Notes under the pieces: generated by a model | What the model saw: only the letters and a program-made list of their open reading frames with translations | Database searches by the model: none | Told to the model about the DNA's origin: nothing | Program-made: the position numbers and the translations under genes | IMG/VR virus record: IMGVR_UViG_2698536618_000024 | Span: 1-23,689 of that record | DNA: 23,689 nucleotides | Source: a virus | Lineage: Duplodnaviria > Heunggongvirae > Uroviricota > Caudoviricetes | Reading direction: 5' to 3' (one strand) | Part shown: piece by piece, positions 810-23,689 of the stretch | Layout: the number at the start of each line of letters is the position of its first letter | How positions within the stretch are numbered: the stretch's first letter is position 1

Positions 810-1458
810 TGGCAGCAAATACCGAAATATTTGGGTAGTTGGCGATCTGCACGGATGCTACACGAACCTGATGAAAAAACTGGAGACGATAGGATTCGAC
901 ACCAAAAAAGACCTGCTTATCTCGGTTGGCGATTTGGTCGATCGCGGTACAGAGAACGTCGAATGCCTGGAATTAATCACATTCCCCTGGTTCAGAGCTG
1001 TACGTGGAAACCATGAGCAAATGATGATTGATGGCTTATCAGAGCGCGGAAACGTCAATCACTGGATGCTTAATGGCGGTGGCTGGTTCTTTAATCTCGA
1101 TTACGACAAAGAAATTCTGGCTAAAGCTCTTGCCCATAAAGCAGATGAACTTCCGTTAATCATCGAACTGGTGAGCAAAGATAAAAAATATGTCATCTGC
1201 CACGCCGATTATCCTTGTGACGAATACGAGTTTGGAAAGCCAGTTGATCATCAGCAGGTAATCTGGAACCGAGAACGAATCAGCAACTCACAAGACGGGA
1301 TCGTGAAAGAAATTAAAGGCGCGGACACGTTCATCTTTGGTCATACGCCAGCAGTGAAACCGCTCAAATTTGCCAACCAGATGTATATCGATACCGGCGC
1401 AGTGTTCTGCGGAAAGCTCACATTGATTCAGGTACAGGGAGAAGGCGCGTGGGCATAA
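787..1458 (+). CDS. ninI: PPP-family Ser/Thr protein phosphatase (lambda PPase-like)
   Basis: Metallophosphatase motifs GDLHG, GDLVDRG and GNHE visible in translation; start placed at [23 protein letters not shown] (ATG 787), not the ORF-track start at 712, because the upstream extension overlaps ninH and is not phosphatase-like. Confidence 0.9.
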
Positions 1459-1967
1459 GAGAACTAAACCTCACCAAAGAACAGCATGAGTGGCTGAATG
1501 GCTGGCTTGAACTGTGGGGCGCATGGGTTTATTCAGGTCGTCTGGAAAAGCGCATGAGCAGCGTAATAGCGAAGTTCATGGAGAGCGTAGAGCCGGGAAG
1601 AGTTATGACAAGACCAATGTGCAATGATGATGATGGAATGTTGATTTCTCAGGTCGTCGATTCCGTCATGTACATTGACAAGAAAGCCTTTGGCATCCTC
1701 CTCAGCTACTACGCTCATGGTTCATCTAAGCGAGCAATTGCATCCTACTATCACGCGACTGCAAAGCCACGCAAGATGTGTGGACGTGGTGGCGAGGGAT
1801 GGAGAAAACCTTCACTGGCAACCTGTAGAAACGAAATTGACGACATCCTGAAAGCGTCGTTATTTGTTTTGTACCAGCCAATGCAAAATGCTTTCAAAAT
1901 GCGTAAACGTGTTGAGAAAGTTAAGCATGTTGCTGTTAAAAGTCTTGACATGCAATTAGCCATTTAG
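1449..1967 (+). CDS. Late-gene antitermination protein Q (non-lambda, QuuD/phage-82-like type)
   Basis: Position immediately after nin genes and before lysis genes; N-terminal [12 protein letters not shown]...[12 protein letters not shown] resembles the recalled E. coli DLP12 QuuD pattern (ERWGAWAANN...RPQCCDDDAMII); GTG start overlaps phosphatase stop. Confidence 0.75.
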
Positions 1968-2030: not shown

Positions 2031-2105
2031 GGGTCAGTCGTATAAAGGTCATTACGGAAGGCTGTTAACCTTCTTATCGTGGTTCGAGTCCACGCTGTCC
2101 CGCCA
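2031..2105 (+). tRNA. tRNA-Asn(GUU)-like gene, possibly degenerate
   Basis: Hand-folded cloverleaf: anticodon stem GAAGG/CCTTC, loop CTGTTAA (anticodon GTT), T-arm CGTGG-TTCGAGT-CCACG, discriminator G plus encoded CCA; acceptor stem has one U-U mismatch (4:69) and D-stem only 3 bp. Confidence 0.5.
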
Positions 2106-2110
2106 AATAT

Positions 2111-2186
2111 GCTGGTTTAGCTCCAATGGTAGAGCGGTCGCCTTGTAAGCGAATGGGTAGCGGTTCAAGTCCGTTAACCAGCACCA
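2111..2186 (+). tRNA. tRNA-Thr(UGU)-like gene
   Basis: Hand-folded cloverleaf: perfect 7-bp acceptor GCTGGTT/AACCAGC, D-arm GCTC-CAATGGTA-GAGC, anticodon loop CTTGTAA (anticodon TGT), T-arm AGCGG-TTCAAGT-CCGTT, discriminator A, encoded CCA; acceptor ends resemble recalled E. coli tRNA-Thr. Confidence 0.6.
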
Positions 2187-2634: not shown

Positions 2635-3109
2635 CGTAATAGCGGCGATAAGTGGCGGGGCTATTGCTATAGCATCTGTGTTAATCACTGGACCAAGTGG
2701 TAACGATGGCCTGGAAGGTGTCAGCTACATACCATACAAAGATATTGTTGGTGTATGGACTGTATGCCACGGACACACCGGAAAAGACATCATGCTCGGT
2801 AAAACGTATACCGAAGCAGAATGCAAAGCCCTCCTGAATAAAGACATTGCCACGGTCGCCAGACAAATTAACCCGTACATCAAAGTCGATATACCGGAAA
2901 CAACGCGCGGCGCTCTTTACTCGTTCGTTTACAACGTGGGTGCTGGAAATTTCAGAACATCGACGCTTCTTCGCAAAATAAACCAGGGCGATATCAAAGG
3001 CGCATGTGATCAGCTACGTCGCTGGACATATGCTGGCGGTAAGCAATGGAAAGGTCTCATGACTCGTCGTGAGATTGAGCGTGAAATCTGTTTGTGGGGT
3101 CAGCAATGA
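2606..3109 (+). CDS. SAR endolysin (T4-lysozyme-like GH24 muramidase with N-terminal signal-anchor-release domain)
   Basis: N-terminal Gly/Ala-rich weakly hydrophobic segment ([22 protein letters not shown]) followed by E-x8-D-x5-T catalytic spacing ([17 protein letters not shown]); near-identical to my recollection of phage 21 R. Confidence 0.9.
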
Positions 3110-3573
3110 ACAGAGTAACCGCGATTATCTCCGCTCTGGTTATCTGCATCGTCGTCTGCCTGTCATGGGGTGTTAATCATTACCGTGATAACGCCATCGC
3201 CTACAAAGAACAGCGCGACAAAAATGCCAGAGAACTGAAGCTGGCGAACGCGGCAATTACTGAGATGCAGATGCGTCAGCGTGATGTTGCTGCGCTCGAT
3301 GCAAAATACACGAAGGAGTTAGCTGATGCGAAAGCTGAAAATGATGCTCTTCGGCGCAAGCTTGATAATGGTGGCAGGGTGCTCGTCAAAGGAAAATGCC
3401 CTGTGCCATCCTCAGACGAAACCTCCAGCGCCTCCGGCATGGGCAATGATGCCACCGTCGAACTCTCTCCAGTTGCTGGACGAAACGTTCTCGGTATCCG
3501 GGACGGAATTATCCGCGACCAAACAGCACTAAGAACGCTTCAGGAATACATCAGGACGCAATGCCTTCGATGA
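3106..3573 (+). CDS. Rz: Rz i-spanin
   Basis: N-terminal TM segment ([18 protein letters not shown]), coiled-coil-like body, strong resemblance to recalled lambda Rz; ATG 3106 overlaps endolysin stop (ATGA). Confidence 0.85.
3326..3532 (+). CDS. Rz1: Rz1 o-spanin lipoprotein, embedded in the +1 frame of Rz
   Basis: Lipobox LIMVAGC then Pro-rich PPAPPAW; resembles recalled lambda Rz1; fully nested within Rz. Confidence 0.8.
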
Positions 3574-3747
3574 TAGCGATAATTTTACTCATCATCCTTC
3601 ACATCTGGCTCTGTAGGCAGGGTGGTGAACACTTCTGGAGTGAATCCGGATTAAATATCTCATTGCTGATGCTTGATATTGAGCATCTGGCGCGCGGTAA
3701 GGGGCTGTGTTGAGATAAGAGCCAGTCATTACAAACACCAGGATTTA

Positions 3748-3770
3748 GCCTCGCATTCGCGGGGCTTTTT
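3748..3770 (+). terminator. Intrinsic terminator-like hairpin in the post-lysis spacer
   Basis: GCCTCGC (3748-3754) pairs with GCGGGGC (3759-3765) with one G-U, loop ATTC, then TTTTT 3766-3770. Confidence 0.4.
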
Positions 3771-4043
3771 ACATCTGCAGTAAACCGCGCATCGCAGCGC
3801 GTAACAATCCCGAGTCTTTCAGAAAGCTGAGCCTGAGAACTGCCGTATATGGTGGCGACCATCTCGGGGCGGCTTTTCTGTGCGAAACCGGAATTTATTC
3901 TTGGCAACCAGTTACGGCAGTACCACGAAACAACCCAAGCCAGTAAGTGGGGAAATAACACTGGCAGCCACTGAAAGATGAACCTCCTGCCTTATGGCAA
4001 AAAAGATTCTTTGTGGTGGCGGACTGATGGAAAGACATCGGTT

Positions 4044-4078
4044 ATTGCAGAGACCATTCAATGAGTGGTCTCTGCAAT
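4044..4078. repeat. 13-bp perfect inverted repeat with 9-bp spacer
   Basis: ATTGCAGAGACCA (4044-4056) / TGGTCTCTGCAAT (4066-4078), read directly; ~65 bp upstream of the ORF starting at 4142. Confidence 0.7.
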
Positions 4079-4141
4079 GGCTTATACCCTGCACGGGATA
4101 ACTTAACTGATATCCCTTTTAACGGATAAGCGGAGCCAACA

Positions 4142-4384
4142 ATGGCAGAGATTATTCCCATGACTGAAGAACAGAAATTCCAGTTAGAGATTTACAAGCT
4201 GGTCATGAACCAGAACGCAGCCGCAGAGGAAGCATTTCAGTTCATTGGCACTGACGAACTGAAGCTTGAGCTATTCAAAATTCACTTCCAGTCAGGTGGT
4301 GCTAATTCGGATATCACGATCCGCACATTCGAAGCGGTGCGTAAATCGAAGGAAGCGTTAGACCTGTTTACTACCGGAGCATGA
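4142..4384 (+). CDS. Hypothetical small acidic protein (80 aa) upstream of terminase
   Basis: Clean ORF with GGAG-type RBS context, protein-like helical composition; same position and size as the small orf80 that I recall preceding gene 3 in P22; no function recognised. Confidence 0.55.
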   Translation: MAEIIPMTEEQKFQLEIYKLVMNQNAAAEEAFQFIGTDELKLELFKIHFQSGGANSDITIRTFEAVRKSKEALDLFTTGA

Positions 4385-4582: not shown

Positions 4583-5011
4583 ATGAATATGGCGACTGAA
4601 CCAAAAGCTGGTCGCCCCTCTGATTATATGCCGGAGGTGGCTGACGATATCTGCTCGTTGCTTTCTTCTGGCGAAAGTCTGCTGAAAGTATGTAAGCGTC
4701 CTGGTATGCCGGATAAGTCCACTGTTTTCCGCTGGTTGGCAAAGCATGAGGATTTTCGCGACAAGTACGCGAAGGCAACTGAGGCACGAGCTGATTCTAT
4801 TTTCGAAGAGATATTCGAAATTGCTGACAATGCGATTCCAGATGCTGCTGAGGTGGCAAAGGCAAGACTTCGCGTTGATACCCGCAAATGGGCGCTGGCC
4901 CGAATGAATCCCCGTAAGTATGGCGACAAGGTAACTAACGAGCTTGTCGGCAAAGACGGCGGCGCAATCCAGATTGAAACATCACCGATGAGCACTCTAT
5001 TCGGAAAATGA
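4583..5011 (+). CDS. Terminase small subunit
   Basis: 142 aa ORF immediately upstream of and overlapping (ATGA) the large terminase; N-terminal region looks HTH-like; family assignment by position and size only. Confidence 0.75.
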   Translation: MNMATEPKAGRPSDYMPEVADDICSLLSSGESLLKVCKRPGMPDKSTVFRWLAKHEDFRDKYAKATEARADSIFEEIFEIADNAIPDAAEVAKARLRVDTRKWALARMNPRKYGDKVTNELVGKDGGAIQIETSPMSTLFGK

Positions 5012-21358: not shown

Positions 21359-22468
21359 ATGAATAATAAAGGCAATATAATTCAAAGTCTTACATCGTTG
21401 AGAATGTTTGCAGCCCTTGGTGTTTTCGTTAGTCACCTTGGGTTATTATCTCAATCATCTATTGGCATGTTTAATACTGCGGCAAAGTATTTTTTTAACG
21501 GTTACATAGGTGTAACGTTTTTCTACATTCTTTCAGGTTTCATTATAAACTATAGCTTCACAAATCATATAAAAAAAGAGAGATTTAGCAATAAAGATTT
21601 TATTGTATACAGGATTGCAAGAATATTCCCTGTGCATATAGTGGCGCTTATTTGTTTTATTTTAATATTTATGCATGGTAAGGGTATTGATGGTATTAAT
21701 AATGGAGTGCTTATTTCAAATATATTATTACTACAATCATTTATTCCATTACAGGATTATTACTTTTCCTTTAATTCCGTTTCATGGAGCATCTCATGTG
21801 AGATGTTTTTCTACGTTGCATTTTGCTTATTAACAAGGCTAAAGACAAAGCATTTAACTTGTGTGCTGTTATTTGTGCTTGCGATTAATTTTTATTATTT
21901 AATTAATCCACCATCAGCTATATCACAGCATTGGTTGTTTTATATAAATCCATCATTTAGAATTGGCGATTTCATTATAGGAATGCTGATCTGTAGGGTG
22001 TTTATTAATAGTGATGTAAAAATCAACTATACTGTTTGCAGTATACTTGAGATCGCATCGGTGTTGTCATTGTTTTTGACAATATATGTAGCAACAAACT
22101 ATATCACATATATGAACATAAAATATGATGTTCTATATATCCCTTGCATGGCGTTTATAGTTATTGCATTTGCTTTTAATGGTGGCGTCTTATCTAAGAT
22201 ACTTAAAAATAGATTTATGGTTTTGCTTGGTGAGGCCTCTTTCTCATTTTACATTTTCCATTGGATGATAATACAGGTAATAACTAAGATATTAAACCCT
22301 GACACTGATAATTTGTATGAGATGTTAATGTATATAGCATTTTCTTTATTGGTTTCTATTATTGTATCAATAATCTCATTCAAGGTTATAGAAGTGCCTT
22401 CAAATAAAATAATAAGAGGTTATTGGAGAAAGTTTAGAGGTGATAAATTAACTGCGAAGTGTAGTTAG
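21359..22468 (+). CDS. Integral-membrane acyltransferase family 3 protein; candidate O-antigen acetyltransferase (Oac-like serotype-conversion gene)
   Basis: 369 aa, hydrophobic multi-pass throughout, N-terminal region SLRMFAALGVFVSHLG typical of acyltransferase-3 proteins, strongly AT-rich; sits between tailspike and int, the position I recall for oac in Sf6 and gtrABC in P22. Confidence 0.75.
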   Translation: MNNKGNIIQSLTSLRMFAALGVFVSHLGLLSQSSIGMFNTAAKYFFNGYIGVTFFYILSGFIINYSFTNHIKKERFSNKDFIVYRIARIFPVHIVALICFILIFMHGKGIDGINNGVLISNILLLQSFIPLQDYYFSFNSVSWSISCEMFFYVAFCLLTRLKTKHLTCVLLFVLAINFYYLINPPSAISQHWLFYINPSFRIGDFIIGMLICRVFINSDVKINYTVCSILEIASVLSLFLTIYVATNYITYMNIKYDVLYIPCMAFIVIAFAFNGGVLSKILKNRFMVLLGEASFSFYIFHWMIIQVITKILNPDTDNLYEMLMYIAFSLLVSIIVSIISFKVIEVPSNKIIRGYWRKFRGDKLTAKCS

Positions 22469-22516
22469 AGTTATTTTATAGTTCCTCTTGGTTATTTTAT
22501 TGCAAATATATTTAAT

Positions 22517-22550
22517 TGATGAAAAGGTGGATCACTCCACCTTTTCATCA
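22517..22550. repeat. 15-bp perfect palindrome overlapping the integrase stop codon
   Basis: TGATGAAAAGGTGGA (22517-22531) - TCAC - TCCACCTTTTCATCA (22536-22550); the int stop (TGA on minus, 22532-22534) lies in the loop. Confidence 0.7.
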
Positions 22551-23689
22551 AGCCAATCCGCCCACCACTGCATCATTTCTCTGCGCTTATCGAGATACTG
22601 AGCATGGTTGTAAATTCCGCGCACAGATCCGCCGTTGGCATGTGCCAGTTGCACTTCAATAGCGTCGGCAGGCCATTCGTGCTCGTTCATAATCGTGCTG
22701 AATTCATGTCTGAATCCGTGACCGCTTTCCAGACCCTCATAGCCGATTTGTTTGATCACAAGCAATACCGCGTTCTCGCAGATTGGCTTCTTCTTATCGT
22801 TGCGCCCGGCAAAAACAAACTCTGATACTTGTTTAGTGATTGAGCTTAGTGTAGTGAGAAGTTCAACCACCTGGTCTGACATCGGGACCACATGAATTTT
22901 GCGTCCCTTCATCACATTGGCGTCAATGGTGATAATCCTGTTTTCAAAATCGACGTTCTTCCATTGCATGGAACGAAGCTCTTTCGTTCTTAGGGCTGTA
23001 TAGCGTAAAACCTTGGTGGCAATGAGCGATACGATACTTCCTGAAAATGTTGCCAGTGCTTTGTTGAATGCCGGGATCTGGTCTGCAGGTAAAAACGGGA
23101 AGTTCTTCTTGCGGTATCCCTTCATGGCGTCAGCAAGGTCAGGTGCCGGGTTATATTTAGCCCTTCCTGTGACAATAGCGTAACGAAAAACCTCGCCGCA
23201 TCTTCTGCGGGCTTTATTGGCTCGTTCCATTGCACCGCGATCTTCAAATCTGCGGATTACTTCCAGCAGTTGCATCGGCTCTATATCCTGAATCTCAAGA
23301 CCGCCGATGATGGGCAAAATGTCGTCATCAAACATTTTGGCAAGTTCAGTTGCATAGCCTACTGACCAGACTTGCTTCTTGTGCTCGTACCATTCCTTGT
23401 AAATGGCGCTAAAGGAATTGTTGTTAGACGAAGCCTTTTTCGCTTTTACCGGATCGATGCCAACCGAGATGTCTTTCCTCGCGGTCCATGCTTTATCTCT
23501 TGCCTCCTGCAAAGTCATTAGCGGATATTTTCCGACGGTCAGGATTTTCTCCTTACCGTCAATCTTGTAGCGAAGCTGCCATACCTTTTTCCCTGATACA
23601 GGGACATAAAGGTACAGGCCATTACCATCGAGTAGGCGGTATGGTTTTTCTTTCGGCTTAGCTGCTTCAATCTGCTTAACGGTGAGCAT
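22532..23689 (-). CDS. int: Tyrosine integrase (P4-type arm-binding N-terminus)
   Basis: 385 aa; N-terminus MLTVKQIEAAKPKEKPYRLLDGNGLYLYV typical of P4-family integrases; C-terminal HGFRHEF and GIYNHAQY boxes fit the tyrosine recombinase H-x-x-R...Y motifs; start codon is the last 3 nt of the window, so a longer N-terminus cannot be excluded. Confidence 0.9.
   Translation of the reverse strand: MLTVKQIEAAKPKEKPYRLLDGNGLYLYVPVSGKKVWQLRYKIDGKEKILTVGKYPLMTLQEARDKAWTARKDISVGIDPVKAKKASSNNNSFSAIYKEWYEHKKQVWSVGYATELAKMFDDDILPIIGGLEIQDIEPMQLLEVIRRFEDRGAMERANKARRRCGEVFRYAIVTGRAKYNPAPDLADAMKGYRKKNFPFLPADQIPAFNKALATFSGSIVSLIATKVLRYTALRTKELRSMQWKNVDFENRIITIDANVMKGRKIHVVPMSDQVVELLTTLSSITKQVSEFVFAGRNDKKKPICENAVLLVIKQIGYEGLESGHGFRHEFSTIMNEHEWPADAIEVQLAHANGGSVRGIYNHAQYLDKRREMMQWWADWLDEKVE

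Follow-up and report, generated by a model that had tools for sequence, protein, structure and literature searches.

The spacer between the Rz gene and the DUF2560 gene of a P22-like prophage (IMG/VR virus record IMGVR_UViG_2698536618_000024, whose positions 1 to 23,689, the whole stretch analyzed, are called the window here) is best read as the framework of a docking region with two slots for accessory genes, the first of which was emptied by a 654-base-pair (bp) deletion; we put the probability of this reading at roughly 0.72. An earlier note, made from the letters of the window, had singled out the spacer as a stretch of about 570 bp that is poor in open reading frames (ORFs) and contains a terminator-like hairpin and a perfect 13-bp inverted repeat, and had offered as candidates a small RNA, a packaging (pac) element, an operator or a decayed gene. 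Its observation is confirmed here, and its interpretation finds support in part. In itself the region is ordinary: a mosaic intergenic scaffold that has no cargo and that carries two private mutations, the deletion and a perfected palindrome. The leader and the family of hairpins that frame the spot, on the other hand, appear to be undescribed in Rfam or in the searchable literature, and we found nothing relevant in the literature on a leader, hairpins or RNA at this position.

The evidence for a docking region comes from the way in which the spacer aligns with its relatives. In megablast searches of phage records and of complete Escherichia coli genomes, the region always matched as two pieces that lie 500-650 bp apart in the subject, a left arm (3538-3886) and a right arm whose start is 3884 or, in some lineages, 3907 or 3914. 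Every close relative carries a cargo gene between the arms: a KilA-N gene in E212 and E. coli 81EVA, a Rha gene in Sf101 and E. coli 1190, and a T5orf172/MUG113-type gene, annotated as GIY-YIG, in epsilon34 and HK106. The impression recorded in the earlier note, that a gene seems to be missing where phage lambda has bor and P22 has extra ORFs, was therefore well founded, as the relatives carry their cargo exactly there, and the alignment with related prophages that it had suggested yields two flanking arms with a gene between them that is absent here.

The closest relative is the prophage of E. coli 81EVA, which matches the window at 100% identity over 3500-3886 and at 98.5% from 3884 on, and which has 654 bp that the window lacks. 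At the left flank 81EVA reads TTTTCTGTGCGAA followed by CAGGCTCATCTTTCTAAAAGGTAAGACGCTATG, and at the right flank GGGTGGGCTTGATAAT followed by GAAACCGGAATTT, whereas the window reads GTGCGAAACCGG; the left breakpoint falls between GTGCGAA and CAGGCTC and the right one between GATAAT and GAAACCGG. As reconstructed from this comparison, the deletion took the cargo gene, its ribosome-binding site and its 3' hairpin, and cut the structured 5' leader. The idea of a decayed gene thus stands insofar as a gene was lost, but the loss was a clean one that left no pseudogene and only a truncated 5' leader. The junction was found only in the window: there was no contiguous match to a 96-bp junction query in 50,697 phage records and 5,426 E. 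coli genomes, and no exact junction pattern in one genome per bacterial species (GTDB), in IMG/VR or in JGI metagenomes. A single 21-mer match to the junction, in a metagenome-assembled genome of Clostridia (L011; L numbers are ours for the loci compared), has no homology to the window and was set aside as chance.

What occupies the slots varies widely. Downstream of a shared ATG the slot-1 cargo proteins are wholly different from one another, forming 24 clusters; the representatives that were scanned against Pfam include Phage_pRha, KilA-N, ANT/KilAC, T5orf172/MUG113 and HNH_3 proteins, together with several that have no Pfam family, one of them an apparent membrane protein. Measured against what is expected of a moron, cargo is present and variable in the relatives and there is none in the window. 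The second slot accepts cargo as well, in that 21 of the 68 collected copies have inserts of 130-1300 bp with ORFs of their own (for example at L026:1118-1545, L071:9176-10492, L074:6818-7219 and L124:8138-8266; example ORFs encode 123 amino acids (aa), 80 aa, and 59 aa plus 246 aa), and each such insert ends in its own version of the terminal hairpin described below.

The 140 nucleotides (nt) that run from terminator A (Table 1) to the junction recur at 72-98% identity downstream of lysis genes, mostly without annotation, in phages of Escherichia, Salmonella, Klebsiella, Enterobacter, Hafnia and Providencia and also in Stx phages (81EVA, L004:4156-4346; HK639, L012:1202-1322; HK97, L007:296-477; also L016, L017 and L018-L136). 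A pattern scan of IMG/VR gave 119 loci, and the set comprises 126 leader copies in all, of which 125 continue with CAGGCTCA and then, beyond a short spacer, with the Shine-Dalgarno sequence AAAGG and an ATG; the window alone lacks that half. A profile of the leader (nhmmer) matched the window at 3786-3885 (E = 4e-28, model positions 1-99 of ~130) and detected no second copy there, the conserved core of the right arm not being a detectable paralogue of the leader. The leader of the window is therefore incomplete, with the 3' strand of the clamp, the Shine-Dalgarno sequence and the ATG all absent, and the fragment that is left folds no better than its shuffles when taken alone (z = -1.0).

In intact copies, RNAalifold and counts of paired positions back four elements, terminator A and the GCGC hairpin among them. 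A long hairpin is predicted to form from TGAGCCTG/CAGGCTCA, AGAA/TTCT, GCCG/CGGC and the apical GGT-GGCG-ACC, and its lower extension, CTTTCAGAAAG/CTTTCTAAAAG, places the Shine-Dalgarno sequence within the minimum-energy helix of the intact leader. Across the alignment 92.5% of cells are paired, as compared with at most 53% when the partners are slid, and two-sided changes occur at 15 pairs, of which terminator A accounts for 8. An additional pairing, S1, connects the internal loop of the long hairpin with a segment that lies upstream of that hairpin; it takes the forms CCCGAG/CTCGGG, CGAGAG/CTCTCG, CCGAGAG/CTCTCGG, AGAGAG/CTCTCT, CCAAGAGC/GCTCTTGG (in HK97) and, with one G-U pair, CCTAGAG/CTCTGGG; these variants were listed by script, since MAFFT misregisters the two main leader types, and reverse-strand self-matches were discarded. 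S1 may either form a pseudoknot with the long hairpin or be an alternative to its lower half. We infer that the leader is read within the late transcript, where it would limit translation of the cargo. An Rfam scan of nine related loci, intact leaders included (E up to 1), returned nothing above threshold except tRNA.

The terminator-like hairpin of the earlier note is indeed present, at 3747-3770, where a terminator scan, folding and compensatory changes agree. Its 8-bp stem has 6 G-C pairs and is closed by a 4-nt loop and followed by TTTT(T), and the fold (-14.2 kcal/mol, z = -3.4) was matched in stability by 0 of 200 shuffles. Among 46 relatives all 8 of the 8 pairs show two-sided changes and 90.5% of cells are paired; the site is annotated as a terminator in epsilon34 (as Rho-independent), HK639 and HK106. 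The sequence at 3747-3770 thus has what is expected of an intrinsic terminator, as which we class it.

The inverted repeat is also real, with arms ATTGCAGAGACCA and TGGTCTCTGCAAT at 4044-4078 that extend to 17 nt. By simple arithmetic ~0.02 perfect, close-armed inverted repeats of at least 13 bp would be expected by chance in 23.7 kb, and the window has two. As plus-strand RNA the hairpin that contains this one, hairpin C, forms a 20-bp stem of -31.4 kcal/mol (z = -9.6), as compared with -21.6 for the minus strand. Comparison with relatives places it in a family: sequences directly 5' of ATGGCTTATACC share an architecture in which a 2x2 internal loop separates an outer stem from an inner one of 10 bp. 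Where the slot is empty the inner stem is GAGRCCA/TGGTCTC; where slot-2 cargo precedes it, AAGCCA/TGGCTT; and in hairpin B, which lies 3' of slot-1 cargo in relatives and is deleted from the window, AGCCCA/TGGGCT. The 9-mer CATTACAAA, left as a half-hairpin upstream of slot 1, also opens hairpin B (CATTACAAAGCCCATCTACGGGTGGGCTTGATAATG). Among 19 distinct variants of the family 93.9% of cells are paired, as compared with at most 50% when slid, and two-sided changes are seen at 6 pairs. The variant met most often, GAGGCCA/TGGTCTC, pairs through G-U, and so in plus-strand RNA only; P22 has the compensating form GAGGCCA/TGGCCTC. By its position and by both of its stems hairpin C is a member of this family, the window's copy being the only one with a closed internal loop.

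That the repeat is perfect, by contrast, is private to this genome. The internal loop CA/GA has become CA/TG (4073-4074) in 1 of 68 copies, that of the window, and the other 67 of 67 are interrupted; closure by TG raises the stability from about -24 to -31.4 kcal/mol. No perfect palindrome was found in 337 hairpin-bearing E. coli records, in IMG/VR or in JGI metagenomes, and the best identity to the window's hairpin in the E. coli records, 97.2%, corresponds to exactly the two TG mismatches. Absence of the repeat from all related phages, which the earlier note would have counted against its proposal, accordingly holds for the perfect form only, the imperfect form being widespread. Each of the two adjacent changes from GA to TG replaces a mismatched base by the one that complements the opposite arm exactly, as in quasi-palindrome correction, and we infer that the perfect stem arose in this way, by template switching; since a single genome is concerned, two independent substitutions or an unseen donor allele would also be possible.

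The right arm was matched by 200 phage records and is 93-97% identical, without any annotated feature, in HK97, HK140, mEp234, mEp235 and N7. It is a mosaic in its own right, with breakpoints at 3907, 3914, 3960, 4039/4063 and 4076. Near its 3' end hairpin D, which is annotated as a terminator in phage Ayreon and is 98-100% identical in Stx phages, is terminator-like, with a weak 6-bp stem and a 10-nt loop (-9.1 kcal/mol, z = -1.8).

We propose that lambdoid phages of enterobacteria keep a docking region within the late operon, downstream of the lysis cassette and upstream of the head genes, which in relatives is arranged in the order Rz, 50-aa ORF, terminator A, a ~110-nt leader ending in the common Shine-Dalgarno sequence and ATG, cargo 1, hairpin B, conserved core, optional cargo 2, hairpin C, hairpin D and DUF2560. 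Cargo 1 is mostly antirepressor-like (Rha, KilA-N, ANT or T5orf172). In the window, slot 1 would have been emptied by an illegitimate deletion across GAA that carried away the leader's 3' strand together with the ribosome-binding site, the cargo and hairpin B; slot 2 is in its usual empty form. The elements may act in cis as RNA, on a late transcript that is antiterminated by Q: terminator A would block transcription in the absence of antitermination, the intact leader would bury the Shine-Dalgarno sequence of the cargo, and the terminal hairpins would be 3' barriers or processing sites. At the level of DNA the same hairpins could provide common flanks through which cargo is swapped by homologous recombination. 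The remnant of the leader in the window would have no cargo left to regulate.

A bolder version of this proposal, to which we give rather less than even odds, is that the leader and the terminal hairpins together make up an undescribed and widely shared cis-acting RNA "expression socket" for interchangeable, antirepressor-like late genes of enterobacterial lambdoid phages, the leader probably being a pseudoknot, or else a switch with two states, in which the Shine-Dalgarno sequence is buried. Were this so, the leader would represent a structured regulatory RNA of a new class, one that Rfam does not contain, and the window would carry a naturally truncated copy of it.

Several points weigh against the docking-region reading. 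That the window lost a gene, rather than never having had one, is a polarity that rests on parsimony. A consensus scan found no sigma-70-like site on the plus strand of the spacer, of the window or of the intact leaders that could serve as the cargo's own promoter, so that the cargoes are not textbook morons and read-through of terminator A has to be assumed. Hairpins B and C have no U tract and are therefore not canonical terminators. Covariation in the long leader helix is sparse, because the helix is so conserved, and most of the double changes lie in the terminator; the S1 variants represent few independent lineages, and a Watson-Crick run of at least 6 occurs in ~20% of shuffles. The very high conservation of the core could reflect recent spread rather than function. 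Finally, every function that we assign at the level of RNA is deduced from sequence.

The core is also the starting point for a different explanation, namely that it is an independently expressed small regulatory RNA, possibly together with hairpin C. Its identity of 98.5-99.7% among ~54 distinct relatives exceeds that of most of the flanking coding sequence (89-97% for the Rz gene and 91-99.6% for the DUF2560 gene), it is carried by otherwise unrelated types of phage and is never annotated, it has a stable hairpin at its 3' end, and there are precedents for small RNAs beside antirepressor-type genes in c4 and IsrK. The core, however, folds with a z of only -1.4, hairpin C has no U tract, and no sigma-70-like promoter was found on either strand; sequence variation is too little for a test of covariation. 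Nor did the Rfam scan that the earlier note had called for reach a gathering threshold anywhere in the window, the best hit (Rfam 15, E up to 10) being Proteo-phage-1 (E = 6.8), whose 16.8 bits fall short of a gathering score of 42. We therefore regard a small RNA as unlikely. Less likely again is that the region is mainly protein-coding, with the 50-aa and 35-aa ORFs on the plus strand or a 120-aa antisense ORF accounting for its conservation. The best case is the 50-aa ORF, which is intact in 44 of 45 homologues, matches PHROG 11822 and is annotated as a coding sequence in relatives (Sf6 gp65, epsilon34 gp67 and RefSeq WP_021520328). It has no Pfam family, its variable sites (11/6/13 by codon position) show no clear excess at third positions and so give a weak coding signal, and it is disrupted by an insertion sequence (IS) element in SEN22. 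The 35-codon ORF has no upstream Shine-Dalgarno sequence and no Pfam or PHROG match, and only its first 15 codons are conserved, after which relatives run through unrelated sequence to early stops, so that its C-terminal part is not conserved as protein; it is probably not a gene. The minus-strand ORFs that reach 60 aa (3599-3961 and 3912-4094), which the earlier note had already judged implausible, match no family in Pfam or PHROG, and they run across the deletion junction or across mosaic breakpoints. A genuine 50-aa gene would still leave 3714-4141 non-coding.

The repeat might instead work as DNA, either as a pac or terminase recognition element or as the operator of a dimeric regulator, given that a perfect 13-bp palindrome stands ~500 bp upstream of the small terminase gene. 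We consider this very improbable, the perfect form being private to this genome. As to packaging, the block, hairpin included, precedes three unrelated packaging systems at 93-97% identity: it lies 5' of an Sf6-type small terminase (TerS; PF20901) in the window and 81EVA, of a P22 gp3-type TerS (PF16677) in E212 and E. coli 1190, and of the HNH/cos module in HK97. The Sf6-type and P22 gp3-type TerS proteins have no detectable similarity, and the block is thus not specific to a cognate small terminase, on which ground the pac reading was rejected; the pac site of P22 is an asymmetric 22-bp sequence inside the TerS gene (PMC9611059). As to an operator, relatives break the dyad at two positions, and the common form keeps its pairing through G-U in plus-strand RNA only; dyad symmetry is not conserved as DNA, and the repeat is probably no operator. 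Hardly more credible is the idea that the terminal hairpins are sites of a dedicated, attC-like exchange of cassettes by way of folded DNA, rather than passive homologous flanks. It would account for the coincidence of cargo boundaries with hairpin bases, for the retention of the 2x2 internal loop across hairpin classes with different stems and for the half-hairpin 5' and full hairpin 3' of slot 1. No dedicated recombinase accompanies the region, however, the sole integrase in the window being of the ordinary phage type with an arm-binding domain; no attC core GTTRRRY was noticed when the hairpin was read by eye rather than scanned formally for motifs; many of the block's other mosaic breakpoints are at a distance from hairpins; and the flanks are long enough for ordinary homologous recombination.

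The docking region that we favor resembles several known systems in part. It has the same map position as the lambdoid accessory-gene site (P22 rha, the HK97 KilA-N gene and lambda bor), the same neighbors (Rz on one side, DUF2560/orf80 and terminase on the other) and, in relatives, the same cargo families; it differs in that the slot of the window is empty and in that no cargo promoter was found in the relatives. It also departs from the classical moron, which Juhala et al. are said to have defined in 2000 as a promoter, a gene and a terminator, in that all cargoes here stand under one structured leader, ribosome-binding site and start codon. Terminator A is like Rho-independent terminators in its G+C-rich 8-bp stem, tetraloop, T run and covarying pairs, from which hairpins B and C differ in their long interrupted stems without a U tract and hairpin D in its weak stem. 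RNA control of phage antirepressors (c4-ant of P1/P7, sar-ant of P22 and IsrK-anrP of Gifsy-1) concerns the same functional class of cargo, and, as in the fold-back occlusion of the ribosome-binding site in IS10, the most stable predicted fold of the leader buries the Shine-Dalgarno sequence; unlike c4, sar and IsrK, the leader would act in cis, and it has no detectable antisense partner and no Rfam match. The terminal hairpins recall the intercistronic processing hairpins of RNase III in T7 and lambda (R1.1-type and sib) in their length of ~20 bp, small internal loop and location between late cistrons, a likeness that is architectural only, and the version in the window is an uninterrupted 20-bp duplex.

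For this genome, the findings mean that a dispensable accessory gene was lost and that the palindrome is a private mutation in a common hairpin. More broadly, at least 24 different cargo genes, in phages from 6 or more enterobacterial genera, lie between the same conserved leader and the same type of 3' hairpin, and such common flanks offer a testable explanation of how the genes are swapped. A buried ribosome-binding site could likewise explain how potentially toxic, antirepressor-like genes are restrained within a strongly transcribed late operon, and the deletion and the closed hairpin loop of the window provide natural mutants of the leader and hairpin elements.

Table 1 Features of the spacer and its surroundings (window coordinates)
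Feature	Position	Strand	Description
NinG, phosphatase, then Q-type antiterminator	Q 1449-1967		upstream portion of window
Two tRNAs	2031-2186		tRNA-Asn (GTT) and tRNA-Thr (TGT), between Q antiterminator and holin genes
Holin, endolysin, Rz	Rz 3094-3573		lysis genes; Rz, PF03245, ends at 3573
50-aa ORF	3561-3713	+	overlaps Rz stop; hydrophobic N-terminus; PHROG 11822, E = 3.6e-35
Half-hairpin 5' strand CATTACAAA	3727-3735	+	left upstream of slot-1 cassette; single copy in window
Terminator A	3747-3770	+	AGCCTCGC-ATTC-GCGGGGCT and T run
Truncated leader copy	3786-3886	+	partners of clamp and anti-Shine-Dalgarno stretch deleted
GCGC hairpin	3786-3801	+	leader element
S1	3809-3814 with 3863-3868	+	leader element, CCCGAG with CTCGGG
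Anti-Shine-Dalgarno stretch	3816-3826	+	leader element, CTTTCAGAAAG
Clamp 5' strand	3828-3835	+	leader element, TGAGCCTG
AGAA/TTCT	3836-3839 with 3876-3879	+	leader pairing
GCCG/CGGC	3842-3845 with 3870-3873	+	leader pairing
Apical GGT-GGCG-ACC	3851-3860	+	leader pairing
Deletion junction	3884-3886		GAA (3-bp) microhomology joining leader to right arm
Right arm	3884-4141	+	conserved block, P22-like podoviruses and HK97-like siphoviruses; itself mosaic
Conserved core	3930-4049	+	120 nt, unannotated, precedes second cargo slot
35-codon ORF	3994-4101	+	P22 orf25 and Sf101 gp64 start at internal ATG 4027
Second cargo slot	4039/4063		empty in window, as in most relatives
Hairpin C	4040-4082	+	module-terminal hairpin, closes slot 2, contains inverted repeat 4044-4078
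Hairpin D	4095-4120	+	GGGATA-N10-TATCCC then TTTT; just 5' of DUF2560 ribosome-binding site
DUF2560 ribosome-binding site	~4132-4135	+	GGAG
DUF2560 gene	4142-4384	+	PF10834, E = 2.6e-42; first gene 3' of spacer
59-aa ORF, then Sf6-type small terminase	small terminase 4583-5011		3' of DUF2560
Large terminase, portal, putative further virion-gene ORFs, tailspike, O-antigen acyltransferase, integrase			3' of small terminase

The window is part of a P22-like (Lederbergvirus) prophage of the CUS-3/Sf6-like kind, whose nearest relatives among phage records are CUS-3, phiv205-1 and Kapi1. Because Q, holin, endolysin and Rz lie upstream of the spacer and the terminase downstream, the spacer sits within the Q-dependent late operon. 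The limits given for it in the earlier note are correct, Rz ending at 3573 and DUF2560 starting at 4142. As a description of its content, "ORF-poor" over ~570 bp is right as to extent, but a cut-off of 60 aa had hidden the 50-aa ORF on the plus strand, and the gene-free stretch is therefore 3714-4141, or ~430 bp. The only tRNA genes of the window are the two listed in Table 1, with no tRNA or transfer-messenger RNA in the spacer region; phage L has tRNAs at the matching position.

In phage SEN22 (L006:285-1432) the IS element lies within the 50-aa ORF, with the sequence corresponding to window 3584-3590 apparently duplicated on either side of it. SEN22 has neither terminator A nor the leader, and after the ORF CATTACAAA leads straight into hairpin B. 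In phages ST64T (L009:1612-1968) and L (L010:1612-1968), orf118 is an in-frame fusion of the 35-codon ORF with DUF2560, made by a 36-bp deletion of the stop codon and hairpin D. In HK97 (L007:1501-1841) an unannotated remnant just 5' of the HNH endonuclease gene consists of the right arm and the initial 82 nt of the gene for DUF2560.

One contig, L018, carries two copies of the leader (L018:7267-7478 and L018:8515-8617) that are ~1.1 kb apart and are each followed by an ORF, so that units of leader and cargo can run in series; the second copy is diverged, with AGAGAG/CTCTCT as S1 and GGGGAAA/TTTCCC in the long hairpin. Within the window, TCTTTCAG of the leader (3816-3826) is the reverse complement of CTGAAAGA in the core (3971-3980), and GGTGGCG is common to the leader (3851-3857) and the core (4009-4015); these common motifs could reflect chance, base pairing within one transcript or common origin.

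The other perfect inverted repeat of the window, at 22516-22551, has 16-nt arms (TTGATGAAAAGGTGGA/TCCACCTTTTCATCAA) separated by a loop of 4 nt. The acyltransferase gene (21359-22468) and the integrase gene (22532-23689, minus strand) converge on this repeat, which is probably a bidirectional terminator.

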